The translations under genes and the position numbers were made by a program. Of a DNA stretch of 36,528 bases, positions 35 through 25,975 are shown piece after piece (the first letter of the stretch is position 1; each line of letters opens with the position of its first letter). Where the stretch lies: sequence record SRR33789315_102; one strand, 5' to 3'. Below the pieces are notes generated by a model. It searched no databases. It was not told where the DNA came from and was given only the letters and a program-made list of their open reading frames with translations.

Positions 35-1012
35 TTAAAAATAACTTGCTTTCAGGTTTAATCCTTCGGTTTGCGGAAGGCCAAAAATCAAATTCATATT
101 TTCTACTGCCTGACCCGATGCACCTTTCAATAAATTATCGATGGTACTGGAAATCAATAGTTTGTTATTCAATTTTTCTAAATGAATCAGGCATTTATTG
201 GTACTTACCACCTGTTTCATATGGATGGGTGTTTCTGAAATAAAGGTAAACGGAGCCTCTGCATAGTAAGCGTTGTAAAGTTCCTTGACTTCTGCTAAAT
301 CTCCCTCAAATTTGGTGTACGCTGTCGCGAAAATTCCTCTGGAAAAATTTCCCCTATTCGGTAAAAAATGAATTTCTTTATCAAAACCCCGTTGCAACTG
401 CCCTACTGTTTGGTTGATTTCGCCCATATGTTGATGCGAAAAAGGCTTGTAATAGGAAAAATTGTTGTCGCGCCAGGTAAAGTGTGTAGTTGCTGAAAGT
501 GAAGTTCCCGCACCCGTGGCACCTGTTACTGCATTGACGTGGACGTCATCTTTGATCAATCCTGCGTTTGCCAGTGGCAATAAAGCCAATTGTATAGAAG
601 TGGCAAAACAACCCGGATTTGCAATGGAACCCGCTTCTTTTATAGCACTTTTATTCAATTCGGTTAGACCGTAGATAAACTCACGTCCTTGAAATTCAGC
701 ATCAGGTTTTAATCTAAAGTCGTTGCTTAAATCGATAATAATTGTACTTTCTGTGAAAGGTGTCTTTTCTAAAAAAGCCATTGAATTTCCGTGACCTAAA
801 CAAAGAAAGACCACATCTACTGAAGTATTTACCGTATCTGCAAAAACAATATCTGTACTGCCCAACAAATCCTGATGTACTTTATATAAAGGATTTCCGG
901 CATTTGAGGTGCTGTACACAAAATCTAATTCCACCTGCGGATGGTTCAATAAGATTCGAATGAGTTCACCTGCCGTGTACCCTGCGCCTCCTATGATTCC
1001 TGCTTTAATCAT
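35..1012 (-). CDS. argC: N-acetyl-gamma-glutamyl-phosphate reductase
   Basis: GGAGYTAGEL Rossmann motif, catalytic ANPGCF, GATGAG and DNLLKGASGQAVEN motifs. Start overlaps the argG stop (TAATG). Confidence 0.97.
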   Translation of the reverse strand: MIKAGIIGGAGYTAGELIRILLNHPQVELDFVYSTSNAGNPLYKVHQDLLGSTDIVFADTVNTSVDVVFLCLGHGNSMAFLEKTPFTESTIIIDLSNDFRLKPDAEFQGREFIYGLTELNKSAIKEAGSIANPGCFATSIQLALLPLANAGLIKDDVHVNAVTGATGAGTSLSATTHFTWRDNNFSYYKPFSHQHMGEINQTVGQLQRGFDKEIHFLPNRGNFSRGIFATAYTKFEGDLAEVKELYNAYYAEAPFTFISETPIHMKQVVSTNKCLIHLEKLNNKLLISSTIDNLLKGASGQAVENMNLIFGLPQTEGLNLKASYF

Positions 1013-2196
1013 TAATTAGGATTTACGTGGTTGTAGATTTTATTCTGATTGCCCATTAATTTGATAAAGCCTTTGGCATCATCTGCCGTCCAACCTTTAT
1101 GCATTTCGCCGTAGGCACCAAAAGAGGCATTCATCAAATCGTGATCAGATTTAATGCCTTCCAGTGTAAATCGATATGGATTTAGCGTTACATACACATC
1201 GCCTGAAACTTGCTCTTGGCTATTCTCAAAAAAGGCTTCCATATTACGCATAACTGGATCCAGGTACAAGCCCTCGTGCAAATGCATGCCGTACCAGTTA
1301 GACAGGTAATCTTTATGTTGTTGCTGCCATTTGGTAAGCGTATGCTTTTCTAAAAGATGATGTGCTTTAATAATGATAATCGGTGCTGCAGCTTCAAAAC
1401 CCACACGACCTTTAATCCCAATAATGGTATCGCCCACGTGAATATCACGACCAATACCATACGGAGCTGCTAGTTTTTGTAGGTTTTCGATATTTTCTAC
1501 CGGAGTCCCTTTTTTGCCATTCACAGCCGTTAAATTTCCTTTAGTAAATGAAAGTGTAACTTGCTCACTACCCGCTTTTTCAACCTGAGATGGAAATGCA
1601 GATTCTGGTAAACCTTGATGCGAAGTAAGAGTTTCGCTTCCGCCTACACTCGTACCCCAAAGTCCACGGTTGATGGAATATTTGGCTTTTTCCCAAGCCA
1701 TTTCCACACCTTCGCTTTTAAGATATTCTATTTCTTCCTGACGAGACAATTTTTTATCGCGTATAGGGGTAATAATTTCAATTTCAGGAGCTAAGGTTTG
1801 AAAGATCATATCAAAACGCACTTGATCATTACCTGCACCCGTACTGCCGTGTGCAACATATTGTGCCCCGATAGACTTAGCATAATTGATAATCTCAACG
1901 GCCTGAATAATACGCTCTGCACTTACCGAAAGTGGATAAGTGTTGTTTTTTAGCACATTACCATAGATAAGATACTTAACTACCTTATCGTAAAAAGTCT
2001 CAACAGCGTTAATATTTTTATAGGTTTTAGCCCCTATTTTTAAAGCTTTAGATTCTATCTCATCAATTTCAGCCTGACTGAAACCACCCGTGTTTATGCT
2101 TACCGCATGAACTTCGTATCCTTCCTCTTTTGATAGGTATTTTGCACAATATGAGGTATCGAGTCCGCCACTATAGGCTAATACTAGTTTTTTCAT
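1012..2196 (-). CDS. argG: Argininosuccinate synthase
   Basis: LAYSGGLDTS, AHGSTGAGNDQVRF and GIKGRVGFE motifs. Confidence 0.97.
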   Translation of the reverse strand: MKKLVLAYSGGLDTSYCAKYLSKEEGYEVHAVSINTGGFSQAEIDEIESKALKIGAKTYKNINAVETFYDKVVKYLIYGNVLKNNTYPLSVSAERIIQAVEIINYAKSIGAQYVAHGSTGAGNDQVRFDMIFQTLAPEIEIITPIRDKKLSRQEEIEYLKSEGVEMAWEKAKYSINRGLWGTSVGGSETLTSHQGLPESAFPSQVEKAGSEQVTLSFTKGNLTAVNGKKGTPVENIENLQKLAAPYGIGRDIHVGDTIIGIKGRVGFEAAAPIIIIKAHHLLEKHTLTKWQQQHKDYLSNWYGMHLHEGLYLDPVMRNMEAFFENSQEQVSGDVYVTLNPYRFTLEGIKSDHDLMNASFGAYGEMHKGWTADDAKGFIKLMGNQNKIYNHVNPN

Positions 2197-2822
2197 TTTT
2201 TTTCTTTCTTTAGAAACAACGTTTCTTTTATGCTTTTTAATCTGGTAAATGCTTTGCCATTTACTTTTTCTTGAGGCTCTTTAACCACCTTTTTTTCTTC
2301 TTTTGCAGGATCATATAACATTCCTGTACACAAGCACATTTTTTGTTCTGTACGCTGTAAAACGTCATAATTCCTACAGGTTTGACAACCTTTCCAGAAA
2401 CTAGGATCATCTGTAAGTTCTGAGAACGTGACCGGCTTATAACCTAAATCAGAATTAATTTTCATTACCGCAAGACCTGTAGTAATCCCGAATATTTTAG
2501 CATCAGGATATTTATCTCGTGAATGTTTAAAAATGGCTTCTTTTATGCTTCTAGCCAGTCCTCTTCCTCTAAAATCAGGATGAACAATAAGACCCGAGTT
2601 GGCAACATATTTACCATGTCCCCAAGCTTCTATATAGCAAAAGCCAGCAAACTTACCATCTTCTATAGCGATGATGGCGTTACCGTTTTCCATTTTAGTG
2701 ATAACATACTCCGGAGTACGACGAGCGATACCCGTACCGCGTACTTTGGCAGATTCTTCTATAGTATCACAAATAATTTGCGCAAATCCCGAATGAGATT
2801 TATTTGCAATTACAATATCCAT
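2193..2822 (-). CDS. GNAT N-acetyltransferase, probable ArgA-like N-acetylglutamate synthase of Bacteroidota
   Basis: Acetyl-CoA motif VHPDFRGRGLA and FWKGCQTC...CLC cysteine motif. First gene of the arg cluster, ATGA overlap with argG. Confidence 0.8.
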   Translation of the reverse strand: MDIVIANKSHSGFAQIICDTIEESAKVRGTGIARRTPEYVITKMENGNAIIAIEDGKFAGFCYIEAWGHGKYVANSGLIVHPDFRGRGLARSIKEAIFKHSRDKYPDAKIFGITTGLAVMKINSDLGYKPVTFSELTDDPSFWKGCQTCRNYDVLQRTEQKMCLCTGMLYDPAKEEKKVVKEPQEKVNGKAFTRLKSIKETLFLKKEKK

Positions 2823-2863
2823 TTATATGTAACTGAGATTAAAAAATAAGTATATGATTGCTG

Positions 2864-2891
2864 AAAAAGGAACCGGACTCACCTAGGCTCC
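2864..2891 (-). terminator. Intrinsic terminator of the arg attenuator
   Basis: Minus strand GGAGCC-TAGGTGAGTCC-GGTTCC-TTTTT, between the leader ORF stop and the GNAT start. Confidence 0.7.
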
Positions 2892-2909
2892 ATAAAGAAG
2901 TTGCACCCA

Positions 2910-3014
2910 CTAGGGGCGACGGAAACGGCGTGCGGGACGAGATAATTGCATAGTAGAACACCCAACTAAATTTATTGGATCAAATGTGCTTATATGTATC
3001 GTTACCGTTTTCAT
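2910..3014 (-). CDS. Arg-rich leader peptide MKTVTIHISTFDPINLVGCSTMQLSRPARRFRRP* (34 aa)
   Basis: Translated by hand. All 5 Arg lie in the last 9 codons (CGT/CGC). Followed by a terminator and then the arg biosynthesis genes. Confidence 0.8.
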   Translation of the reverse strand: MKTVTIHISTFDPINLVGCSTMQLSRPARRFRRP

Positions 3015-3024
3015 TATGAAGCAT

Positions 3025-3054
3025 TAAAATTACAACCTTCTCTAGAGTTGACAA
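3025..3054 (-). promoter_or_regulatory. Bacteroidota-type promoter for the arg leader
   Basis: TTG-N19-TAATTTTA on the minus strand; 1 mismatch to the TAnnTTTG -7 box. Confidence 0.55.
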
Positions 3055-3177
3055 TACTTTTTATCTAAAAATCGTATTTTAATTCTATTTTTTATTAATT
3101 ATTCAAAGAATTCTACTTTTTGACATTACACCTAAAGTTTATGCAGTAATTAGCTTTAAAAATCATTTTATTTTCAA

Positions 3178-3217
3178 TAAAAAAGCCCTTGCTCACTTTA
3201 GTGAACTTGGGCTTTTT
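3178..3217. terminator. Hairpin terminator downstream of gapN
   Basis: AAAAAGCCC...TCACT-TT-AGTGA...GGGCTTTTT, with A/T tails on both sides. Confidence 0.75.
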
Positions 3218-3239
3218 ATGTCAAATTCAAAATATTACA

Positions 3240-4838
3240 TTAAAGAATATAATCTGTACTGATAAAATTGGATTTTTTAGTATCTAATAATTCGTTTAAT
3301 ATAGCATTATTGTAGTCGTTATCTTTTGAAGCTACAAAGGTTCTAATCGAAAATGCACGTAATGCATCATGAACACTCAATGTACCCGTGGCTGAATCTT
3401 TACGACCTGTAAATGGGAAAACATCTGGTCCGCGCTGGCAAGAACTATTCAAGTTTACACGGCAAACTAAGTTTACTAAGGTATCTATTAAGGGTGCAAG
3501 TGTTTTTGTGTCCTTTCCAAAGAGACTTACTTGTTGCCCATAACTTGACTCTGCCATATCATCTAGCGGCTCATCTATGGTTTTAAAAGGAACAATAGGA
3601 ACTACTGGTCCAAATTGTTCTTCTTGATACACACGCATTTCTTTGGTTACCGGAAATAAAACGGCAGGGAAAATAAAGTTTTCTGAACGCTCTCCTCCTT
3701 TTTCATTGATTATTTCTGCACCTTTTTTGATAGCATCATCAATCAATTCTTGAATATATTCTGGTTTACCCGGTTCTGGCAAAGGCGTTAATTTTACACC
3801 CTCTTCCCAAGGAAGTCCAAATTTAAGTTCATCTACAGCCTCAGCATATTTTCTATTGAAACTTTCGGCTATGTTTTCATGAACATATAATACTTTTAAT
3901 GCAGTACACCTTTGACCGTTATAGGATAAGGTTCCTGCAATGCACTCCGATACGGCAAGATCAAGATCTGCATCAGCTAAAATGATGGCTGGGTTTTTTG
4001 CTTCTAAACCTAAAACCAAACGCAACCTATTTTGTTTAGGATGCAAATTTTGTAAAGCATTAGCCGAAGAGCTATTGCCAATAAGAGCCAAAACATCCAC
4101 TTTTCCCGTTTTCATAATAGGTGAAGCTACTACACGACCACGACCAAAAATAATGTTTACTACACCTGCCGGAAAGCTTTCTTGAAACGCTGCTAACAAA
4201 GGTGCAATAAGCAAAACTCCAAATTTGGCTGGTTTAAATATAGCAGTGTTTCCCATAATGATTGCAGGAATCAAAAGGGTAAATGTCTCATTAAGTGGGT
4301 AATTATAGGGGCCTAAACATAGTACAACTCCAAGTGGCCCACGTCTGATATGTGCGTGAATACCGCCTTCTTTATGGAACTTAGCACTATCACGATCCAT
4401 ATCTTTATAATCTTCAATGGTATCGTTTATATAATCTACTGTACGATCAAATTCTTTCTGTGAATCAGCATAGTTTTTACCAATTTCCCACATCAAAAGA
4501 TTTACAACCTGTTCTCTTTTTGTTTTCATCTTTTGGACAAAAACTTCCATACACTTTATACGATCTACCACTTTCTTAGTAGGCCATAATCCTTGACCAC
4601 GATCATACGCTTTATGAGCAGCATCTAAAGCTTCCAGTGCTTCTTTTTCTCCTAAATCTGGAACAGAACCTAAAAAGGTAGGTCCTACTTTATCGTCTTT
4701 TTTTGTTTGTATTGTAGAATAAACGTCGGCCACTTCTCCTTCCCAATATACCAACTTACCGTTTACTAAATAAGTCTTCTGATTTAAGGGTTTAACATGG
4801 AATTTTTTAGGAATTTCTGGAATAATTACCTCATTCAT
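3240..4838 (-). CDS. gapN: NADP-dependent non-phosphorylating glyceraldehyde-3-phosphate dehydrogenase (ALDH family)
   Basis: [17 protein letters not shown], catalytic GQRCTA and EEQFGPV motifs. Confidence 0.85.
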
Positions 4839-4882
4839 ATTCTGTAGTTTAGGCTTAGTTCTATTTGAAAAGTCTTCTAAAA

Positions 4883-6148
4883 TTAGATTAAAAATTCAAA
4901 CAAATTGGGTTTATCGTTTAAATAGACGCTATAAAAATTACGTTGTTTCATTCTTGAAAGTAATGGCTCAAAGTCTTCTTTACTTTTTATTTCGATACCT
5001 ACAACCGCTGGACCTTCTTCTCTACTCGTCTTCTTTTTATATTCAAAAAAGGTTATGTCATCACTAGGTCCTAATACATCATTTAAGAATTCTCTTAAAA
5101 CGCCTGCACGTTGTGGAAAACGTATAATAAAATAATGCTTCAATCCTTGATGGAGCAAAGCTCTTTCTTTGATTTCGGCCATGCGTGTGATATCATTATT
5201 GCTACCACTTACGATGCACACCACATTCTTTCCTTTAATTTCTTCAGAATATTGATCTAATACAGCTAATGTAAGTGCACCAGCAGGCTCAACCACAATG
5301 GCATCTTTATTATATAAATCTAGAATAACCTGACATATTCTACCTTCTGATACTGTTACCATATCGTGAAGATATTCTGAACAAATTGCAAAGTTTCGGT
5401 CACCCACACGCTGAACAGCGGCACCATCAACGAACTTTTCAATGTTTTTAAGTGTCGTGTTCTCGTGGTTCATTATGGATGTTTTCATAGATGGCGCACC
5501 TTCAGGCTCAACTCCTATGACTTTAGTATGAGGAGACAAAACTTTAAAAACCGAACTTATACCAGCAGCCAATCCTCCACCACCAACAGGTATGAAGATG
5601 TAATCTATAGGGATATCTGTTTGTTCTAAAATTTCTAAGCCTACAGTTGCCTGACCCTCGATTATCTTTTCGTCATCAAAAGGATGCACAAAAGCTTTTC
5701 CCAATTGGTCACATTCTGCCTTTGCTGCAACATAAGCATCGTCAAACGTATCGCCCGTAAGTACTATATCTACATACTCCTGACCAAACATTTCAACTTG
5801 CTCAATTTTTTGTTGCGGTGTAGGTGACGGCATAAAAATCGTCCCGTGTATTTTTAATTTTGCACAAGCAAATGCTACTCCTTGTGCATGATTTCCTGCA
5901 CTGGCACAAACTATACCTTGTTTTCTATCTCGCGCGTCAAGCGAACTAATCTTGTTATAGGCTCCACGTATTTTATAAGATCTAACTTGTTGTAAGTCTT
6001 CTCTTTTTAATAATATATTAGATTCAAATTTTCTTGAATAGGTTAAACTAGCAAGCAAAGGAGTTACCGCAGCAATCCCTTTTAGGGTTTCGGTTGCCTT
6101 TCTAACATCCTTTAGATCTGGAAAATATGTGGTTTTAGTATCACTCAT
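4883..6148 (-). CDS. ilvA: Threonine ammonia-lyase (biosynthetic, short form)
   Basis: SYKIRGA PLP lysine, [13 protein letters not shown] and a C-terminal regulatory domain. Confidence 0.95.
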
Positions 6149-6187
6149 AAGCTTGCCGTGAATTTTGCCATTCTGTTAAATCATTAA

Positions 6188-7687
6188 TTAAGCCATTATG
6201 GCTTCTTTCTTATCAGAAGTCTTAACGTCTTTCATAGCAGTCATTGATTCTCTCAACCAAGCTCCTACTTCTTCAACAGGGTGATTTCTTATTTCATCAT
6301 TCACAAAAATCAATTCTTTATTATCAACACCATTATTGGTTGCAAATGCTTTTCCAATAACATCTGTTTCAATATTTTTCATAAAATCTGTAAGTAAAGG
6401 CTTACAAGCGTGATCAAACAAATAACAACCATATTCAGCAGTATCTGAAATGATTCTGTTCATTTCAAATAATTTCTTACGGGCGATAGTGTTTGCTATT
6501 AAAGGGGTTTCATGAAGCGACTCATAATAAGCAGATTCCTCTATTATACCTGCTTCTGTCATTGTTTCAAAAGCCAATTCGACTCCAGCTTTTACAAAAG
6601 CGATCATCAATACACCGTGATCAAAATACTCTTGCTCAGAAATTTCCATTGTACCAGCATCTGTCTTTTCAAAAGCTGTTTCTCCTGTGGCTTCTCTCCA
6701 AGTTAGCAGATTTACATCATCATTTGCCCAATCTTCCATCATCGTTTTTGAGAAATGACCAGAGATAATATCATCCATATGTTTATGGAAAAGCGGTCTC
6801 ATAATTCCTTTTAACTCTTCAGCTAGTTCAAAAGCTTTGATTTTTGAAGGATTATTCAAACGATCCATCATATTGGTAATACCACCGTGCTTCAAAGCTT
6901 CGGTAATAGTTTCCCAACCGTATTGAATCAATTTTGCAGCATATGAGGCTTCAATTCCTTTTTCGATCATCTTATCAAAACACAAGATAGAACCCGTTTG
7001 TAAAACACCACAAAGAATGGTTTGCTCACCCATCAAGTCACTTTTTACTTCAGCAACAAATGAAGACTCAAGTACACCTGCACGATCACCACCAGTAGCC
7101 ACTGCATAAGCTTTTGCTTGCGCAAGACCTTCTCCTTTAGGATCATTTTCTGGATGCACAGCAATAAGTGTTGGTACTCCAAAACCTCTTTTATATTCTT
7201 CTCGAACTTCTGAACCAGGACATTTTGGCGCCACCATAATTACCGTTAAATCCTTACGGATTTGCATTCCTTCTTCAACGATATTAAAACCATGGCTATA
7301 AGCTAATGTAGCTCCTTGCTTCATTAAAGGCATTATCGTTTTTACAACTGAGGTGTGTTGCTTATCTGGGGTAAGATTACATACTAAATCTGCATCAGGA
7401 ATCAACTCATCATAAGTACCTACTGTAAAGCCATTTTCTGAAGCATTAAGAAAAGAAGTCCTTTTATCTTTAATTGCTCCTGCACGTAAAGCATAGGAAA
7501 TATTCAACCCAGAATCACGCATGTTAAGCCCTTGGTTAAGGCCTTGTGCTCCACAACCTACAATCACTACTTTTTTTCCTGCTAAGGCTTGAATACCGTC
7601 TTGAAACTCATCTGCCTCCATAAATCTACATTTCCCAAGTTGAGAAAGTTGGTCTCTTAACGATAAGGTATTAAAATAATTACTCAT
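6188..7687 (-). CDS. ilvC: Ketol-acid reductoisomerase, long class II form
   Basis: [16 protein letters not shown] and [12 protein letters not shown] motifs; 499 aa. Confidence 0.97.
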
Positions 7688-10037: not shown

Positions 10038-11714
10038 TTAAAATTCATCCGTTACACAACCTTCTGAGGCTGAAGAAACGGTTTTTACATATTTATAGAG
10101 AATGCCTTTATCAAACTTTAATTCAGGCTGTTTCCAATTCTTTTTTCTTGCGCTTAATTCTTCTTCACTTACTGCCACATCTATGGTATTGCTTTCTGCA
10201 TCAATAGTGATTAAATCACCATCTTCTACTAAGCCTATCACACCACCTGTTTGTGCTTCTGGTGTTATATGTCCTACCACAAAACCATGCGTACCACCAG
10301 AGAACCTTCCGTCTGTAATTAAAGCGACCTCTTTACCTAATCCAGCACCCATTATGGCTGCTGTAGGTTTAAGCATTTCGGGCATTCCTGGCCCACCTTT
10401 AGGTCCTTCATAACGTATAACGACTACATCTCCTTTTTCAACTTTCCCCGTGCGAATACCATTATTGGCTTCAAACTCACCATTAAAAACTTTGGCTTTG
10501 CCTGAAAATTTAAGTCCTTCTTTTCCTGTTATTTTTGCTACACTACCTTCTGTAGCTAGGTTTCCGTAAAGAATCCTGATATGTCCTGTTGCTTTTATTG
10601 GGTTTTCTGTGGTATGAATCACCTCTTGTCCCGCTATTAAATCTGGCACATCGGCAAGATTTTCTGCCAAGGTTTTACCAGAAACGGTAAGACAATCACC
10701 GTGTAACATTCCTTTCTCGAGCATGTATTTTAAAACAGCTGGCACACCTCCCACATTATGAAGATCTTCCATAAGATACTTACCACTTGGCTTTAAGTCT
10801 GCCAAAAAGGGTGTCGTGTCACTTATACGTTGAAAATCTGCTAGTGTGAAACTAATATTTGCTGCTTTGGCTATAGCTAAAAAGTGCAATACCGCATTGG
10901 TAGAACCTCCTAACACCGTAACCAATCGTATGGCGTTTTCTAAAGACTTAGGTGTAACAATATCTGACGGTTTTATGTCTTTCTCCACCAAATGTTTTAA
11001 AGCTGCTCCTAAGCGCTTACACTCTTCTTCTTTATTAGAACTTACAGCTGGGTTTGAAGAGTTATATGGCAATGCCATTCCTAAAGCTTCTATTGCCGAA
11101 GCCATTGTATTTGCTGTATACATACCGCCACAAGCACCAGCACCAGGACAAGCTTTATTTATAACACTTTTAAATTCTGCTTCATCTATTTTTCCTGAAA
11201 CTTTAGATCCCCAAGCTTCAAAAGCTGAAACTACATCTAGTTTTTTACCATTATGACATCCGGGAGCAATTGTACCTCCATATACTAATATGGATGGACG
11301 ATTTAAGCGCAACATAGCCATTAATGCTCCTGGCATGTTTTTATCGCATCCCACCACTGTAACTAGCCCATCATAAGACATGGCTTGCACAACAGTTTCC
11401 ATAGAATCTGCTATAATATCTCTAGAAGGTAACGAATATCGCATACCCTGTGTTCCCATCGAGATACCATCACTGACTCCTATGGTATGAAAAATCAATC
11501 CGACTAATCCTGACTGATCTACTCCTTCTTTGACCAAGGTCGCCAGATCATTTAAATGCATATTGCAAGGATTACCTTGATAACCTGTACTTGCAATACC
11601 TATAAAGGGTTTTTTAAAATCTTCATCTGTTAATCCTATCGCGTGTAACATAGCCTGTGCAGCTGGTTGTGTAGGATCCTGCGTAACTGCTTTACTGTAT
11701 TTGTTTAATTCCAT
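10038..11714 (-). CDS. ilvD: Dihydroxy-acid dehydratase
   Basis: [25 protein letters not shown] and TDGRFSG motifs. Confidence 0.97.
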
Positions 11715-11921: not shown

Positions 11922-11950
11922 AAAAAAAAACCTTCCGCTATTGCGGAAGG
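11922..11950 (-). terminator. Intrinsic terminator of the ilv attenuator
   Basis: Perfect 8-bp stem CCTTCCGC-AATA-GCGGAAGG followed by 9 T on the minus strand. Confidence 0.9.
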
Positions 11951-11985
11951 CCTTTTATATATTTACAGCAACTCTACCCGCATTA

Positions 11986-12045
11986 TTAATTTAATTTGCC
12001 AATGCGAATGACACCAAGTAGGTTTATTGCTTCTGTTTTTATCAT
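11986..12045 (-). CDS. ilv leader peptide MIKTEAINLLGVIRIGKLN* (19 aa)
   Basis: Translated by hand; 8 of 19 residues are I/L/V. Overlaps segment 1 of alternative hairpins and lies upstream of the terminator and ilvD. Confidence 0.75.
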   Translation of the reverse strand: MIKTEAINLLGVIRIGKLN

Positions 12046-14982: not shown

Positions 14983-15837
14983 TCAATCAATTTTAATATC
15001 AAAAACAACTTTCGATCCTGCGGGTTTCTGAGACAATGCACAAATGCCCATTTCAGTAAGTTGTAGAATCCTAGGATATCCTCCTGTAACCTGACAATCC
15101 CGCATCAAAACGATTACATTCCCTAATGGTGTAAGTTGCACCGTTCCAGGCAATACAGGAGCCGTAACCAAACCTTTAAAGTTATTATCTATCAAATTTT
15201 CAAACTGAAATGCCATTCGATTACTACTGCTAATAACCGTAAGCGCGGTTTGCAACAAATTCTGTTTGTGATTATGAGAGAGTAACTCAAATTCTGGACC
15301 CGGACAAACATCAATAGCCGTATTAAATATTTCGCTTTCGCGAAAATTCACCCGAGCATAATCTATTGTATTTGTATTTCCTTCATAAACCGGAAGCAAA
15401 TCACCTTTAGACAATTTACTTGCCTTTGTAATCCCTTTATACATACTTCTACTCCCCAATACCAGTTCTGTTTGAAAACCTCCAGCAATAGCTAAATATG
15501 CACAAAGCCCTTTAACCAGCTTTTTAAATGTCAATTTATCACCCGTAGCTACAGTATAGGTCTTGTTCATTTTTAACTCAAGGTCATTTAAGTAAAACAG
15601 AAAATGGGCACCCGTAATGGCAATTGTAGTTTTTCCTGTAAATTCTAGAATTGGACCTTGCATTATAATTTCAAGAACCGCATCGTTTTTATCATTATTG
15701 AGTAATAAATTAGCTCTTTGAGCTGAAATCGAATCCATAGCTCCGCTAATAGGAACTCCAAATTTGGCATATCCATATCTACCCAAATCCTGAACAGTAG
15801 TAAAAAACCCAGGATGAATCACTTTAACCGAATTCAT
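14983..15837 (-). CDS. pxpC: 5-oxoprolinase subunit C (carboxyltransferase A/B family)
   Basis: TTVQDLGRYG, GVPISGAMD and DCQVTGGYPRI motifs. Confidence 0.9.
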   Translation of the reverse strand: MNSVKVIHPGFFTTVQDLGRYGYAKFGVPISGAMDSISAQRANLLLNNDKNDAVLEIIMQGPILEFTGKTTIAITGAHFLFYLNDLELKMNKTYTVATGDKLTFKKLVKGLCAYLAIAGGFQTELVLGSRSMYKGITKASKLSKGDLLPVYEGNTNTIDYARVNFRESEIFNTAIDVCPGPEFELLSHNHKQNLLQTALTVISSSNRMAFQFENLIDNNFKGLVTAPVLPGTVQLTPLGNVIVLMRDCQVTGGYPRILQLTEMGICALSQKPAGSKVVFDIKID

Positions 15838-16559
15838 ATCTTTTCTGGAATCAAATGATAATTTCCTAACTGGGATTGAGTCAAAATATTTTGATGTTCT
15901 TCTTCATCTATTTCATAAAACTGAATCTTATCTCCAGCACTAAAAAGCGAGGGTTTTTCTAGCCGAATATTAAAAAGATTAATGGGACAATTTCCTATAA
16001 TTTGCCACCCTCCTGGGCTTTCATCAGGGTAAATTCCGGTTTGATTTTCAGCTATCCCTACTGCTCCTTTTTGAACACTTGCACGAGGCGTGTTTCTACG
16101 TGGAGTTGCTATGCTATTTTCTAATCCGCCTAAGTAAAGAAAGCCCGGTAAAAAACCTATAAAATAAAGTAGATAATCTGGCTTTGTATGATGCTCAATT
16201 ATTTCTTCTTTGGATAATCCGGTTGAGATACTAACAGCATCCATGTCTATTCCAAAAAAACTATAGCATACTGGTAAGCGCCATAGAGAACGGGAAAACT
16301 GATTTGGTAAATCAACATTAAAATCATTAGCCTCTAATAGCTTAAAATCACTATAAACATTATCTATACTTAAAGTGTAAACAACACATAATGAATTATA
16401 TGTGTTTATAACCTCAACAGATGATTTAACTAATAATTGTTCTACTCTTTGTTTAGCATTAAGTAAAAACAAAAGCGATTTTTCTTCAATATCCAACTCC
16501 CACTGAAGTAGAATACCACGATCTCCTAATCTGGTTATATGGGGTTTTAAAGATTCTAT
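15834..16559 (-). CDS. pxpB: 5-oxoprolinase subunit B; start probably upstream of the ORF-track TTG at 16496, at ATA 16559
   Basis: IGFLPGFLYL, TPR and GIYPDESPGGWQIIG motifs. The open upstream frame encodes the typical ITRLGDRGILLQW N-terminus. Confidence 0.85.
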   Translation of the reverse strand: MESLKPHITRLGDRGILLQWELDIEEKSLLFLLNAKQRVEQLLVKSSVEVINTYNSLCVVYTLSIDNVYSDFKLLEANDFNVDLPNQFSRSLWRLPVCYSFFGIDMDAVSISTGLSKEEIIEHHTKPDYLLYFIGFLPGFLYLGGLENSIATPRRNTPRASVQKGAVGIAENQTGIYPDESPGGWQIIGNCPINLFNIRLEKPSLFSAGDKIQFYEIDEEEHQNILTQSQLGNYHLIPEKI

Positions 16560-16560
16560 A

Positions 16561-17292
16561 TTAGCTTATTTTTATTCCGTGTAAAGGAAGGTTTATCTGT
16601 AAATATTTAATAATTTCAACTGCATTTGGCGTGTCTCCATGAACGCATATCGTATCTACTTTTATCTCTTTTTCACCACCAGAAATCACATTGACTTTTT
16701 CTTCTAAAACCATATTTTTTACTTGATCTAGGATCTCAAGAGTATCTGTTATTAATGCATTTTTTTGATCTCTTGAAACCAAATTTAAGTCTTCCTGATA
16801 GCTACGATCTGCAAACCCTTCAAAAGCTAATTTAACACCTTTAGATGGTAAGGATTTTATAACCGAATTTACTGGAATATATAGATGCAAATCGCTATAA
16901 TATTCTTGCATCAATCCGAGTAACATTCTAGCATAATTCACATCTTGATTGCAACTATGATACAACGCGCCATGCGCTTTTATATGATTGACTTCAACAT
17001 TGTTTAGCTTACATATAGCTACTACCCTATCTATTTGCTCTTTGATATTTGCACTTAATTCGTCGATAGGCATAGCTACATATTTCCTACCAAAATGCTC
17101 TCGATCTGGAAAAGAAGGATGCGCTCCTATTTTCACTCGATTTTGCTTTGCTAACAATACTGCTTCGGTTATACTGTCAATAGATCCTGTATGACCACCA
17201 CAGGCAATACTACACGAACTTATATAAGGCATGAGTTCTTTTTCATTACCTATGCCTTCACCTACATCACAATTAAGATCTATTTTAATCAT
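16561..17292 (-). CDS. pxpA: 5-oxoprolinase subunit A (LamB/YcsF family)
   Basis: IDLNCDVGEG, IACGGH, GAHPSFPD, HIKAHGALY and CVHGD motifs. Confidence 0.93.
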   Translation of the reverse strand: MIKIDLNCDVGEGIGNEKELMPYISSCSIACGGHTGSIDSITEAVLLAKQNRVKIGAHPSFPDREHFGRKYVAMPIDELSANIKEQIDRVVAICKLNNVEVNHIKAHGALYHSCNQDVNYARMLLGLMQEYYSDLHLYIPVNSVIKSLPSKGVKLAFEGFADRSYQEDLNLVSRDQKNALITDTLEILDQVKNMVLEEKVNVISGGEKEIKVDTICVHGDTPNAVEIIKYLQINLPLHGIKIS

Positions 17293-17316: not shown

Positions 17317-18648
17317 TCAGCCAGCTTTACTTAACCTAGCAGTTTTAGGTACCAAAAACAATAGAACCACTCCTATTGCAAAAAATATAATGAAAAACAG
17401 TATTGCATACCGAATGCTTCCTGTGAGTTGTGCCACATAGCCATAACTAAGCATCCCAATCACAATACCTATTTTTTCTGAAACATCATAAAAACTAAAA
17501 TAAGATGCCGTATCCGGCTCGCCTTCTGGTATTAATTTAGAATAAGTAGAGCGTGATAGAGACTGAATACCTCCCATAACCAATCCTACAAAAGCAGCAG
17601 TAACATAAAACTGAACAGGTGAATTAATGGTATAGGCATAGATACAGATTACAATCCATACACAATTTATAAAAATCAAGGTAGGAATATTACCAAAGCG
17701 CGCAGATCCCTTTGATGTCAAATAAGCGCCTAAAATTGCCACGAGCTGTATTAAAAGTATACTTACAATTAATCCCGTTGTACTATCTGTATCTCCCCAA
17801 TCTAATTCTTCTATACCAAAATAGGTAGCAACTAGCATAATGGTTTGCACAGCCATACTATACACAAAGAAGGCCATTAGATAGCGTTTTAAAGGCTTAT
17901 CATGTTTTAGCTTTCCCCAGATCTTCTTAAGTTCTTTAAACCCATTAAACATTACATGTTTGCTGAATTTTTCTTTCTTATTTCCTTTAGGTAAATAATA
18001 ATAGGTATACTGACTAAAGCCAATCCACCAAATACCCGTTAATACAAAAGATAATCTAGTAGGTAGCCCTTCATCTTTAAATCCAAATTTATCATACATC
18101 AATATCATCGCTAGACAGAGAATAAGCAGTAAAACGCTTCCTATATAGCCTAAGGAGTACCCTTTTGCACTAATCTTATCTTGTTGGTTTGGATATGCTA
18201 TATCGGGTAGATAAGAATTGTAAAATACTAAACTGCCCCAAAAACCTATAAGAGCTAAAAAATAACAAAGAAGACCAAACCATAGGTTTTCCATACTAAA
18301 CCAAAACAGTCCAATACAACTAACGGCACCCAGATAACAAAAGAATTTCATAAATATCTTTTTATTGCCTACATAATCTGCAATACCAGACAATAGCGGA
18401 CTAAGAAACGATACTATAAGAAAAGCAAATGCCGTAACATAACTTATCAACGTATCGTTATTAAAATCAATTCCTAGAAAATTTACTGTATCGTCTATGA
18501 TTTTACCATCTTTTTTGACCAAAGTAATGGCGCCGTAAAAAATGGGGAATATTGCAGATGTGACTACTAAGCTATACACTGAATTTGCCCAGTCATAAAA
18601 TGCCCATGCATGTAATAATTTTTTACTTCCTTTTTCTAATGCTCTCAT
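17317..18648 (-). CDS. MFS transporter (UMF1/Atg22-like)
   Basis: WAFYDWANS N-terminal motif and about 12 hydrophobic segments. Confidence 0.88.
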   Translation of the reverse strand: MRALEKGSKKLLHAWAFYDWANSVYSLVVTSAIFPIFYGAITLVKKDGKIIDDTVNFLGIDFNNDTLISYVTAFAFLIVSFLSPLLSGIADYVGNKKIFMKFFCYLGAVSCIGLFWFSMENLWFGLLCYFLALIGFWGSLVFYNSYLPDIAYPNQQDKISAKGYSLGYIGSVLLLILCLAMILMYDKFGFKDEGLPTRLSFVLTGIWWIGFSQYTYYYLPKGNKKEKFSKHVMFNGFKELKKIWGKLKHDKPLKRYLMAFFVYSMAVQTIMLVATYFGIEELDWGDTDSTTGLIVSILLIQLVAILGAYLTSKGSARFGNIPTLIFINCVWIVICIYAYTINSPVQFYVTAAFVGLVMGGIQSLSRSTYSKLIPEGEPDTASYFSFYDVSEKIGIVIGMLSYGYVAQLTGSIRYAILFFIIFFAIGVVLLFLVPKTARLSKAG

Positions 18649-25100: not shown

Positions 25101-25580
25101 ATGAAAAAACTATGTTTTGCTTTGCTCACAATTGTTTTACTTTCTTGTGATGGCAATGCTCAAAAAAAGAATAATCAAAGTTTCGCTATTTCTAAAACAG
25201 ATACAGAATGGAAAGCCATACTTCCTTCCGAAGCTTATTATGTATTAAGAGAACAAGGCACAGAACGTCCTTTTTCTAGTCCGTTATTAAATCTCAAAGA
25301 AAAAGGCACTTATGTATGTGCCGCTTGCCAAAATCCACTATTTAAAAGTGAATACAAATTTAAAAGCGGTACGGGTTGGCCTTCTTTTGATCGCGAGATA
25401 AAAGGCAATGTAGCTTATGAAAAGGGTAATAAACTAAATTATGGTTCTGAAGAACACTGCGCAAATTGCGGTGGGCATTTGGGACATGTATTTAATGATG
25501 GACCAAAAGAAACTACTGGACTGCGTCATTGTATTAATGGAGACGCACTTAATTTTATCCCTGAAGATCAAGAAAAATAA
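25101..25580 (+). CDS. msrB: Peptide-methionine (R)-S-oxide reductase, lipoprotein form
   Basis: Lipobox LLSC, GTERPF, CAAC, GWPSF, CANCGGHLGHVF and RHCING motifs. Confidence 0.93.
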   Translation: MKKLCFALLTIVLLSCDGNAQKKNNQSFAISKTDTEWKAILPSEAYYVLREQGTERPFSSPLLNLKEKGTYVCAACQNPLFKSEYKFKSGTGWPSFDREIKGNVAYEKGNKLNYGSEEHCANCGGHLGHVFNDGPKETTGLRHCINGDALNFIPEDQEK

Positions 25581-25582
25581 TT

Positions 25583-25975
25583 ATGGAAAAATATCCTGTT
25601 GAAAAAACCGAAGTCGAGTGGAAAGAACTTCTCGATCCTGAGAATTATTATGTACTACGCCAAAAAGGCACAGAACGTCCGCATACCGGAAAATACAATT
25701 TACATTTTGAAGACGGAACCTATACTTGTGGTGCCTGCCACGTTCCCTTATTTGAAAGCAACAGCAAATTTGATGCTCATTGCGGATGGCCCAGTTTTGA
25801 TGAAGCACTAGAAGGAGCTATTGAATATGTTCCAGATACTACTTTAGGCATGAAAAGAACAGAAATTTTATGCGCAAACTGCGGAAGTCACTTAGGTCAC
25901 GTTTTTGATGATGGCCCAACAGCAACTGGTCAACGCTATTGCGTAAATTCGTTAAGTATCGATTTTGAAAAATAA
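25583..25975 (+). CDS. msrB: Peptide-methionine (R)-S-oxide reductase, cytoplasmic form
   Basis: GTERPH, CGAC, CGWPSF, CANCGSHLGHVF and RYCVNS motifs; no signal peptide. Confidence 0.95.
   Translation: MEKYPVEKTEVEWKELLDPENYYVLRQKGTERPHTGKYNLHFEDGTYTCGACHVPLFESNSKFDAHCGWPSFDEALEGAIEYVPDTTLGMKRTEILCANCGSHLGHVFDDGPTATGQRYCVNSLSIDFEK

Follow-up and report, generated by a model that had tools for sequence, protein, structure and literature searches.

ArgR/AhrC, the DNA-binding repressor of arg genes, acts at operators and switches these genes off when arginine is plentiful. The arginine leader described here lies on the minus strand of a 36,528 nt stretch of DNA (record SRR33789315_102; this whole stretch is called the window) ahead of genes for a GNAT acetyltransferase, argG and argC, and it shares with ArgR/AhrC both the pathway and the expected off-when-plentiful logic. 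The difference is that ArgR/AhrC is a DNA-binding protein, whose gene is present neither in the window nor beside the leader in relatives: an ArgR domain is found in none of the 27 ORFs of at least 100 aa between 2193 and 36485 and in none of 79 immediate upstream neighbours in relatives, so that the remark in the initial annotation that no argR is adjacent holds. Like the trp, his, leu, thr, ilv and phe attenuators, the locus has a short ORF carrying the codons of its own pathway and then hairpins before the first gene, whereas it departs from them in using arginine, in the length of the ORF, in holding the regulatory codons and the stop codon inside a hairpin, and in having no conserved antiterminator. 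The window itself also contains an ilv leader, in which ATG follows TACATTTG after 4 nt and opens a 19-aa peptide rich in I, L and V, with a canonical terminator behind it. The two leaders share a promoter box closely followed by ATG, but the ilv leader ends in a plain G+C stem with T9 while the last hairpin of the arginine leader has an invariant apex and usually no U-tract.

TnaC and the fungal arginine attenuator peptide are reportedly arrest peptides that sense free amino acids, and the work on SpeFL is said to concern ornithine. The arginine leader is comparable to TnaC and the arginine attenuator peptide in an ORF of the 24-34-codon class, in proline or fixed end residues and in a ribosome that would be held near the stop codon, but an RNA stem accounts for its fixed C-terminal codons, which can be replaced when the opposite arm compensates, and the rest of its peptide is not conserved.

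Arginine codons in leader peptides have been described for other genes. The orf34 leader of speF in Salmonella and E. coli has about 34 codons with consecutive Arg codons, and ribosome pausing at low arginine alters the downstream mRNA fold and the fate of the transcript, with output via Rho and RNase G and not an intrinsic terminator, as reported (PMC6386406). As a leader ORF of about 34 codons with Arg codons it is like the present one and shows that an output without a U-tract is possible, although what it controls is ornithine decarboxylase and not arginine synthesis (PMC6386406). Its two Arg codons are one of several inputs, and it has no sequence or structural likeness to the flavobacterial leader. 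The rbfL leader peptide of Staphylococcus aureus is likewise a small upstream ORF whose Arg codons sense arginine limitation by ribosome pausing; there, however, the codons are the rare AGA/AGG, pausing makes the ribosome-binding site of a biofilm regulator inaccessible, and the control is translational, repressive under starvation and not exerted on arg genes (PMC13009471). An arginine leader of arg genes was found neither in the literature searched, motif-discovery papers included, nor in Rfam, and the accessible part of the F. psychrophilum transcriptome supplement lists leader peptides for ilvE and hisG and none for arg. Across the whole window Rfam 15 (T-box, known amino-acid leaders and Flavo-1 included) gives no match at gathering score, and between 2700 and 3250 it gives only chance-level matches at E up to 10.

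The features of the window on which the argument draws are as follows.

12045-11922, minus strand: ilv leader, with box-ATG layout, peptide and terminator
3212-3179: canonical terminator of the aldehyde dehydrogenase gene, upstream of the arginine leader
3025..3054, minus strand: promoter-like site, TTG at 3054-3052, a 19-nt spacer and TAATTTTA at 3032-3025, read from the sequence
2910..3014, minus strand: leader ORF of 34 codons plus TAG, ATG at 3014 and TAG at 2912-2910, encoding MKTVTIHISTFDPINLVGCSTMQLSRPARRFRRP
2960..2980, minus strand: P1, a hairpin inside the leader ORF in the minimum free energy fold, AUCCAAU / GUUGGGU, 7 pairs with a 7-nt loop
2916..2939, minus strand: Arg-codon run R-P-A-R-R-F-R-R, read from the sequence
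2904..2918, minus strand: P2, hairpin of CGCCC (2918-2914) with GGGUG (2908-2904), -6.1 kcal/mol
2892..2903, minus strand: A/U-rich spacer between P2 and P3, CAACUUCUUUAU, conserved in length and variable in sequence
2869..2891, minus strand: P3, outer stem GGAGCC/GGUUCC, bulge UA, inner GG:CC and loop UGAGU, -9.7 kcal/mol
2864-2868, minus strand: T5 directly after P3, which makes P3 terminator-like in the window
2823..2863, minus strand: G-poor, A/U-rich stretch up to the GNAT start codon, including a T6 run at 2847-2842
2193-2822, minus strand: GNAT acetyltransferase gene (NCBIfam and Pfam)
1012-2196, minus strand: argG (NCBIfam and Pfam)
35-1012, minus strand: argC (NCBIfam and Pfam)

The order GNAT-argG-argC directly downstream of the leader is as first annotated, and the arg operon probably extends past the window edge; an NCBIfam scan assigns the six ORFs from 35 to 7687 to arg, ilv and aldehyde dehydrogenase genes. 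Because the upstream aldehyde dehydrogenase gene has a canonical terminator of its own, the leader should have its own promoter. The promoter-like TTG-N19 element with its downstream box had been noticed initially and is indeed present; it fits, with one mismatch, the Bacteroidetes consensus TTG / TAnnTTTG. The box stops 10 nt short of the leader ATG, and the leader ORF would therefore start a few nucleotides from the transcript 5' end. A box with at most one mismatch ends 3-14 nt upstream of an in-frame ATG, GTG or TTG in 68 of 78 sequences, a count made without a shuffle control, while a search for the full two-element promoter is too strict and finds it in 14 of 78 only. The matches of a sigma-70 promoter scan, which addresses the wrong promoter type for this phylum, are as many as expected from shuffles.

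Folded on its own, the window is no better than chance (z = +0.62 over 198 nt and +0.90 over 106 nt against shuffles), so that a single-sequence fold is unusable as evidence, and it is the comparison across relatives, not the window alone, that points to an element far beyond chance. The comparison set consists of the best 80 of 596 confirmed GNAT relatives, which are Flavobacteriaceae of some 30 named genera. The architecture recurs upstream of the GNAT gene in 79 of the 80 loci, 78 of them strongly and one weakly: a covariance model of the Arg-codon run, P2 and P3 matches the window and 78 loci at 52-80 bits, locus L038 at 28.9 bits and locus L011 not at all. L038 has lost the P3 apex and kept the stem, P2 and the Arg-rich frame, whereas L011 has lost both P2 and P3 and kept the frame, which is therefore the most persistent part. 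The leader travels with the GNAT gene while the upstream neighbour varies. The covariance model finds no second copy of the element above chance-level matches in the window or the loci, and a scan for tRNA genes, meant for a test of pairing with tRNA-Arg, yielded none in the window and none in 60 of the 80 loci.

The 34-aa ORF of the initial annotation is present on the minus strand and ends RPARRFRRP, with five Arg codons, all CGT or CGC, among its last nine (CGT 2939-2937, CGC 2930-2928, CGT 2927-2925, CGT 2921-2919 and CGC 2918-2916); an in-frame internal ATG at 2951-2949 would give a 13-aa form. An Arg-rich open frame lies upstream of the GNAT gene in the window and in all 80 loci and ends about 72-110 nt before the GNAT start (87 nt in the window). 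In 67 of 67 loci this frame is open for at least 27 codons, against medians of 15 and 16 for the other two frames, and the proposed conservation of an Arg-codon uORF of the arg operon across Flavobacteriaceae is thus borne out. The length of the ORF is conserved (27-46 codons with modes at 27 and 31), the peptide only over its last 3-10 residues, and the N-terminal two thirds differ from group to group. Of the 780 residues in the last ten positions of 78 sequences, 289 are Arg. Counted back from the stop, codon -1 encodes Pro in 63 and Thr in 4 of 67 aligned relatives, codon -2 is CGC in all 67, and codons -3 and -4 encode Arg in 61 and 42 respectively, with a further Pro 3-6 residues upstream in many.

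The variation within this frame follows the codons. Codon -3 varies synonymously (CGT 42, CGC 18), T/C variation at codons -3 and -4 is restricted to third positions, the insertions in the leaders of L066 and L067 are 3 nt long, and the strongest column correlations outside helices are between adjacent columns inside codons. Over the last 14 codons the Arg codons comprise 170 CGC, 125 CGT, 12 AGG, 7 CGA and 5 AGA, which leaves 24 of 319 to AGA, AGG or CGA; CGC accounts for 53% of leader Arg codons versus about 9% in the neighbouring genes, where AGA and CGT are the commonest. This CGY bias, together with the terminal Arg-Pro, is partly imposed by the P2 stem. Translation would start at ATG in 50 of 78 sequences and at TTG or GTG in 27 (none in one), and the stop codon is TAA in 58, TAG in 20 and TGA in none; the frame continues past P2 and ends with other residues in 11 of 78.

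Two of the hairpins, P1 and P2, do not appear in the initial annotation. Relatives have a hairpin at the position of P1 too, with a sequence unrelated to it: across 67 sequences the mean z is -1.24, with 55% of them below -1, and 51 of the 77 predicted hairpin loops are centred at 24-35 of a 48-nt segment, which lends moderate support to P1 as a feature shared among relatives. The last Arg codon supplies the 5' arm of P2 together with two Pro-codon bases, and the loop of P2 contains the stop codon, as it does in 67 of 78 sequences. Of its alignment cells 94.2% are paired; one C-G pair becomes A-U in 5 rows and a G-U becomes G-C in 6, and the change from Pro to Thr at the terminal codon (4/67) is accompanied by a compensating change on the other arm. 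With the A/U-rich spacer that follows, P2 passes a simple terminator rule in more sequences than P3. As a real terminator we rejected it: the rule applies in many sequences, yet termination upon ribosome lag would be in the wrong direction for a biosynthetic operon.

P3 combines a variable stem with a nearly constant tip. Its outer arms, GGAGCC (2891-2886) with GGTTCC (2874-2869), correspond in relatives to at least five contiguous pairs in 78 of 79 sequences with 30 distinct arm pairs, and five of the six outer pairs have changed on both sides. The 11-nt apical part at 2885-2875, UAGGUGAGUCC, is by comparison nearly invariant and comprises the bulge, two G-C pairs holding an AGG triplet and a UGNGU loop. 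The motif AGGTGNGTCC occurs at the P3 position in 77 of 80 loci, with two further matches elsewhere in the loci; in the window there is one exact match, and the three obtained when one mismatch is allowed are what chance would give. The distance from the leader stop codon to the P3 anchor is constant at 25-29 nt in 67 of 78 sequences. Taken together, P2 and P3 have 90.9% of cells paired compared with 84.6% in shuffles, of which 0 of 500 reach 90.9%, and 54 cells changed on both sides compared with 19.9, counts of covariation that are inflated by an alignment fitted to the covariance model and by the relatedness of the sequences. RNAalifold on MAFFT alignments recovered P2 and the inner P3 pairs but not the outer P3 stem, which bulges of differing length put out of register; the covariance-model alignment solved this. 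The alignment upstream of the GNAT gene across Flavobacteriaceae, which had been suggested as a check, accordingly yields both a conserved Arg-rich uORF and covarying hairpins P2 and P3.

The hairpin GGAGCC/GGTTCC with its T5 was found at 2891-2864 on the minus strand as initially described, and with this T-tract and its stability the P3 of the window is terminator-like. Its assignment as an intrinsic terminator is nevertheless doubtful for the family. The T-tract is not conserved, with at least four T in the next 8 nt in 18 of 79 sequences and at most two in 35 of 79, the simple terminator rule holds for P3 in 6 of 79, and the invariant, leader-specific apical module is more than a plain terminator would need. 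The invariant apex suggests that a factor, be it protein, RNA or ligand, may also read the hairpin, and since the U-tract is missing in many relatives, termination there may depend on such a factor. Between P3 and the GNAT start the mean composition of 79 sequences is A 0.41, C 0.17, G 0.05 and T 0.37, and a T-run of at least five is present in 53 of 79, starting 15-29 nt after P3 in 49 of the 53. A Rho loading site was considered for this G-poor stretch (C/G about 3.3) and set aside, as a Bacteroidetes translation start region has the same look and the composition is non-discriminating.

The reading that we prefer, with a probability of about 0.6, is that the leader of this arg biosynthetic operon is a ribosome-read sensor of arginyl-tRNA supply, and its most likely role is to tune the operon to the arginine supply without the usual repressor protein. 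The conserved Arg-rich frame and the covarying hairpins support a translated Arg-codon leader that would sense the charging of Arg-tRNA. We infer the translation of the leader, the direction of the response and the output step as follows. Transcription would start a few nucleotides before a leader ORF of 27-46 codons (34 in the window), which presents three to five CGY Arg codons within its last nine or ten; the final Arg codon and the Pro codon would form the 5' arm of P2 with the stop codon in the loop, and P3 would follow as a second hairpin 12-14 A/U-rich bases after P2. When Arg-tRNA is plentiful the ribosome would reach the stop codon and depart, P2 and P3 would fold, and most transcripts would be ended or inactivated at or just past P3, which in the window could act together with T5 as an intrinsic terminator. 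When Arg-tRNA is scarce the ribosome would stall on the CGY run and occupy the leader, P2 would stay melted, and more polymerases or transcripts would get to GNAT, argG and argC. With the ribosome footprint masked in 67 sequences, the mean predicted pairing of P3 is 0.53 for a ribosome at codon -8, 0.60 at -4, 0.63 at -3 and 0.69 at the stop codon, a modest family-wide shift with ribosome position. A ribosome at the stop codon would melt P2 like a stalled one, and the two states would therefore differ only in duration. The gene context, the leader's preference for CGC and the ilv leader as a precedent in the same stretch also speak for this reading, as does the lack of an ArgR gene in the regions scanned. 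Points that weigh against it are the chance-level fold of the window, the missing conserved antiterminator, the P3 of the window that forms at every ribosome placement, the U-tract lacking after P3 in most relatives, and the start codons other than ATG.

An unlikely alternative is that the operon is mainly regulated by something that binds the P3 apex in trans, whether a protein, a small RNA or arginine as ligand, the Arg-rich frame being secondary or a by-product of the G+C-rich P2 region. A near-invariant apical 11 nt within a stem of 30 arm combinations is the pattern of a recognition site, the motif is leader-specific, being absent from the ilv leader and, the further matches noted above aside, from the rest of the window and loci, and most relatives lack the U-tract. 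The coding signals of the frame are, however, hard to explain without translation, and the frame is kept both in L038, which is without the apex, and in L011, which is without P2 and P3. The conserved part is also very small for a selective aptamer, Rfam offers no match to it even at E up to 10, and a partner is not found nearby: a search from -260 to +500 nt for a complement of the invariant P3 loop, with G-U allowed, returned only T-rich promoter DNA and conserved GNAT coding sequence. A possible likeness of the loop to a purine run of Shine-Dalgarno type, judged by the 16S 3' tail, was also considered and set aside.

Distinctly unlikely, in our estimate, is direct sensing by the nascent chain, in which the RR(R)P peptide would, at high arginine, arrest the ribosome on the stop codon and turn the operon off, the parked ribosome setting the downstream fold or the access of a factor. 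A terminal Pro slows release, and the ORF, long for a leader peptide, is conserved in length, its C-terminus is nearly fixed at Arg -2 and Pro -1, the stop is always TAA or TAG, and the distance from stop to P3 is constant, all of which speaks for such a mechanism. Yet the last two codons are held by P2, and the replacement of Pro by Thr with a compensating change in the 3' arm points to a constraint on the RNA and not on the peptide, which weakens the TnaC-like alternative raised in the initial annotation, the terminal Pro itself being part of P2. The unconserved N-terminal two thirds and the 11 of 78 frames that end beyond P2 with other residues argue in the same direction, NCBIfam and Pfam show no leader-peptide or arrest-peptide family match for six leader peptides at E up to 10 (chance-level matches for one peptide), and the simplest account of a codon run for the operon's own product is the sensing of tRNA charging. 

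A two-input device, in which the CGY run would read tRNA-Arg charging and the P3 apex would separately recognise free arginine or an arginine-specific factor, is a reading to which we likewise give little chance; we know of no two-input device of this type described yet in bacteria. Classical attenuation as first drawn, with P3 as terminator and a CCUAG:CUAGG plus CUUC:GGAG antiterminator freed by a stall at the early Arg codons, is very improbable, for although both pairs of complementary segments are present in the window as stated, T5 follows the window P3 and a 5-nt complement (G-U allowed) exists in 23 of 79 sequences, the fold is weak (-5.6 kcal/mol versus -15.8 for the P2 and P3 that it would displace), window P3 stays at a pairing probability of 0.93-0.97 at every ribosome placement, a stalled one included, the pairing is missing in 56 of 79, the loop sequence CUAG is confined to the window and its four nearest relatives, and a mutual-information scan finds only P2 and P3 and no conserved, covarying antiterminator.

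Arginine is the standard example of an amino-acid pathway that a repressor protein controls in the place of attenuation. An Arg-codon leader peptide sensing the charging of Arg-tRNA in some thirty genera of marine Flavobacteriaceae would fill this gap in attenuation, with an element that has no entry in Rfam or the curated protein family libraries, and it would provide a case open to testing in a phylum that differs from the model organisms in its signals for translation and transcription. A stop codon placed in the loop of a hairpin, the missing conserved antiterminator and a terminal hairpin whose apex is invariant and which often lacks a U-tract suggest an output step other than the textbook switch between terminator and antiterminator, and elucidating this step could uncover a new mode by which stalled ribosomes govern the fate of transcripts. 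Should the two-input reading be true, flavobacteria would use RNA-level control of arginine synthesis instead of ArgR, and P3 might be the first arginine-responsive RNA element known from nature. The covariance model could in turn be used to annotate the element in flavobacterial genomes.

The initial annotation of this region had described a promoter-like site, a 34-codon open reading frame, a hairpin followed by five T and the gene order GNAT-argG-argC; all of these were found as described, although two further hairpins, P1 and P2, had been overlooked. The minus strand carries every gene close to the arg leader, whose hairpins are named P1, P2 and P3 from 5′ to 3′, and P2 takes in the end of the leader ORF, from its final Arg codon through Pro to the stop.

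Features of the arg leader and its surroundings
3240-4838, minus: aldehyde dehydrogenase gene, 3′ end facing the leader
Stem 3212-3185 and T-run 3184-3179, minus: canonical terminator of the aldehyde dehydrogenase gene
TTG 3054-3052, 19 nt, TAATTTTA 3032-3025, minus: promoter-like site
ATG 3014 to TAG 2912-2910, minus: leader ORF, 34 codons, peptide MKTVTIHISTFDPINLVGCSTMQLSRPARRFRRP
2980-2960, minus: P1 hairpin, inside the leader ORF, predicted by folding
2918-2914 / 2908-2904, minus: P2 hairpin, CGCCC/GGGUG, stop codon in the loop, predicted by folding
2891-2869, minus: P3 hairpin, GGAGCC/GGUUCC
2868-2864, minus: T5 directly after P3
Between T5 and the GNAT gene, minus: A/U-rich stretch of 41 bases
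2193-2822, minus: GNAT acetyltransferase gene
1012-2196, minus: argG
35-1012, minus: argC

By itself the window proves little about the arg leader, and it folds no more stably than shuffled sequences (z = +0.62 and +0.90). The window also contains an ilv operon whose leader is similarly laid out (box, 4 nt, ATG). This ilv leader (11922-12045, minus strand) is classical, with the box TACATTTG, an ATG at 12045, a 19-residue peptide rich in Ile, Leu and Val (MIKTEAINLLGVIRIGKLN) and a textbook terminator (GGCCTTCCGC / GCGGAAGG plus T9, 11952-11922); ilvD (10038-11714) begins about 200 nt further on and is followed by genes for acetolactate synthase subunits, ilvC and ilvA. Elsewhere the window holds a tandem pair of adjoining SelR (methionine sulfoxide reductase B) genes (25101-25975) and a 5-oxoprolinase-like trio of a LamB/YcsF gene and two carboxyltransferase-subunit genes (14983-17292), adjoined by an Atg22-like MFS transporter gene (17317-18648).

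The GNAT protein is strongly conserved in Flavobacteriaceae. With an alignment of 14 GNAT relatives as query, 596 loci were confirmed in the genome collection and the best 80 (70-86% identity; unnamed bins besides about 30 named genera) were examined; as the closest relatives only, these speak for this family, not for the wider range of the element. In 77 of the 80 loci the decamer AGGTGNGTCC lies 59-113 nt upstream of the GNAT start, the usual distance being 60-71 nt. Of the other three, L015 differs from it by one base, L038 has a simpler hairpin and L011 has neither. A covariance model derived from 79 sequences matches the window and 78 loci at 52-80 bits, scores L038 at 28.9 bits (E = 1.6e-5) and finds no match in L011; no convincing second copy of the element was detected in the window or the 544 kb searched. 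The gene immediately upstream of the leader varies (aldehyde dehydrogenase, threonine dehydratase, an unassigned protein of about 450 aa, an opposite-strand chorismate-binding enzyme and others), and the leader element travels with the arg genes. ArgR is the immediate upstream neighbour in none of 79 cases, in keeping with the initial observation that no argR is adjacent. The aldehyde dehydrogenase of the window (about 530 aa, with its own terminator) is the leader's neighbour in about 27 loci, where it often separates ilvA from the arg leader, all on one strand; NCBIfam assigns it no substrate, with the best matches far below the cut-offs. The protein of about 450 aa encoded upstream of the leader in Maribacter-group loci (L005, L009, L018 and others, approximately 1400-2800) has no Pfam match at E <= 1e-10 (29 loci).

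An Arg-rich open frame ending shortly before the GNAT gene is present in the window and in all 80 loci; such a conserved upstream ORF is what the initial annotation proposed to look for across Flavobacteriaceae. Its stop codon lies within the P2 loop in 67 of 78 sequences, the stops in the 78 being TAA (58) and TAG (20), with no TGA.

Leader codons counted back from the stop, in the 67 sequences with the stop in the P2 loop
Codon -1: Pro 63, Thr 4
Codon -2: CGC in 67 of 67
Codon -3: Arg 61 (CGT 42, CGC 18, CGA 1)
Codon -4: Arg in 42

A looser second Arg cluster occupies codons -8 to -5, and over the last ten leader positions 289 of 780 residues are Arg. Read upstream from the stop, the Arg frame meets no other stop for at least 27 codons in any of the 67 sequences (median 43), compared with medians of 15 and 16 codons for the other two frames, which reach 25 codons in only 27% and 31%. 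Codons -3 and -4 vary at the third base only, AGG, AGA or CGA account for 24 of 319 leader Arg codons, length changes in the alignment are 3-nt insertions (L066, L067) and the strongest correlations outside helices join neighbouring bases within one codon. Together these properties speak for a translated frame rather than a purely structural G+C-rich patch. The first in-frame start is ATG in 50 of the 78 sequences, TTG in 16 and GTG in 11, and is absent from one. A box within one mismatch of the Bacteroidetes -7 consensus ends 3-14 nt before an in-frame start in 68 of 78, a raw count, and T-rich DNA readily matches such a box; starts placed by this box give leader ORFs of mostly 27 or 31 codons. 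Leader Arg codons are 53% CGC and 39% CGT, whereas neighbouring genes use mainly CGT and AGA, with CGC at about 9%; the P2 stem forces part of this bias. Around the beginning of the leader ORF (seen in L026, L057, L037 and L015, approximately 2805-2825), the putative TTG/GTG start of the Winogradskyella-like group sits within a short inverted repeat, TTGAA-caa-TTCAA, of which Gelidibacter has a shifted version; the repeat may fold into a small hairpin that covers the start codon, or it may bind a protein.

In the model-fitted alignment 94% of the P2 cells are paired. Five rows have A-U in place of C-G at its fourth pair, a switch that accompanies the replacement of Pro by Thr, and in 6 rows its G-U pair becomes G-C. 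For the P3 outer stem, computed for each sequence without an alignment, an uninterrupted run of at least 5 pairs forms in 78 of 79 sequences, and 30 different arm combinations occur; in the fitted alignment both sides change at five of six pairs. Covariation is seen in both P2 and P3. The whole structure exceeds 500 of 500 shuffles both in cells paired and in covariation score; sequence relatedness and the fitted alignment inflate these figures. P1 keeps its place as a hairpin although its sequence is unrelated from one relative to another, and has moderate support (mean z = -1.24). In Maribacter-group loci (L009, L036, L050, L056, L060 and others; approximately 2825-2900) the first leader codons, including the AUG, can pair with a segment just before the F-T-P codons, enclosing P1; the paired segments differ by locus (for example AAGAACGAA/UUCGUUCUU versus AACAAAAG/CUUUUGUU), which points to a long closing helix able to conceal the start codon after full transcription of the leader.

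In the window, P3 (-9.7 kcal/mol) with its T5 makes a fair intrinsic terminator, as first proposed, but in the relatives P3 usually appears not to be one: it passes a simple terminator rule in 6 of 79 sequences, and P2 with a U-rich spacer passes more often. The 8 nt after the P3 stem include at least 4 T in 18 of 79 sequences and at most 2 T in 35, and the Maribacter-like group has GCAAAA in this stretch. The proposed CCUAG:CUAGG antiterminator is not supported: its energy is -5.6 kcal/mol versus -15.8 for P2 plus P3, a 5-nt counterpart exists in 23 of 79 sequences even with G-U allowed, and the pairing depends on a CUAG loop that, apart from the window, only the four nearest relatives share. 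A mutual-information scan found no pairing beyond P2 and P3. When a ribosome footprint was masked at successive codons in the 67 sequences and pairing probabilities were recomputed, mean P3 probability was 0.53, 0.60, 0.63 and 0.69 with the A site at -8, -4, -3 and the stop, a shift in the direction a classical attenuator needs, but small; in the window P3 did not shift (0.93-0.97). The stretch from P3 to GNAT is G-poor (5% G, 17% C), which would suit Rho and equally a Bacteroidetes translation start. A run of at least 5 T lies in this spacer in 53 of 79 sequences (2842-2847 in the window), starting 15-29 nt after P3 in 49 of the 53, ending 15-29 nt before the GNAT ATG in 44 and often preceded by an A-rich stretch; it may belong to the translation start region, act as a second promoter or contribute to the output.

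We consider it somewhat probable (about 0.6) that the arg leader senses the supply of Arg-tRNA through the translating ribosome. When arginine is plentiful, the ribosome would complete the leader ORF and depart, P2 and P3 would fold, and transcripts would be ended or inactivated at or past P3; with arginine scarce, a ribosome stalled on the CGY run would hold P2 open and more transcripts would get to the arg genes. The sequence features and their conservation are observed; that the ORF is translated, which way the response runs and how the output is produced are inferred, and the output is the weak point of the model. Where a U-tract is present, as in the window, transcripts may end by intrinsic termination, and elsewhere the output may be factor-dependent termination or RNA decay, as in the Salmonella speF leader, for which PMC6386406 describes pausing at two Arg codons that alters RNase G sensitivity and leader translation that counteracts Rho.

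The sensor model leaves unexplained the almost unchanging P3 apex (a bulge of one or two bases with A at its end, two G-C pairs and the loop UGNGU), which, being invariant and leader-specific, hints at a second reader of the RNA; no partner for it was found nearby. That a factor or ligand binding P3 is the main input seems unlikely, as this would leave the coding signals of the Arg frame unaccounted for, and the frame persists without the P3 apex in L038 and without both hairpins in L011. Slightly less probable still is a nascent-chain sensor of free arginine, to which the conserved ORF length, fixed C-terminus and constant distance to P3 would be congenial, since P2 accounts for the fixed terminal codons, which change with compensation, conservation does not extend to the remainder of the peptide, and NCBIfam and Pfam gave no match to an arrest-peptide family.

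Arg-codon sensing by a leader ORF is itself known, from Salmonella speF (PMC6386406) and S. aureus rbfL (PMC13009471), but neither of these leaders acts on genes for arginine synthesis. The arg leader matches no Rfam model, six of its peptides gave no leader-peptide match in NCBIfam or Pfam, and full-text searches of the openly accessible literature turned up no leader peptide of this kind in front of arg genes. Nor did searching by term through the main texts of Brewer 2021, Weinberg 2017 and Narunsky 2024 yield one, and the spreadsheet supplement of an F. psychrophilum transcriptome gives leader peptides for ilvE and hisG and none for arg; an earlier description may nevertheless exist. The arg leader would work like the amino-acid leader attenuators, but of their defining features no conserved antiterminator was found in it and the intrinsic terminator is present only in part, and it is therefore best regarded as a variant rather than a plain member of that class.
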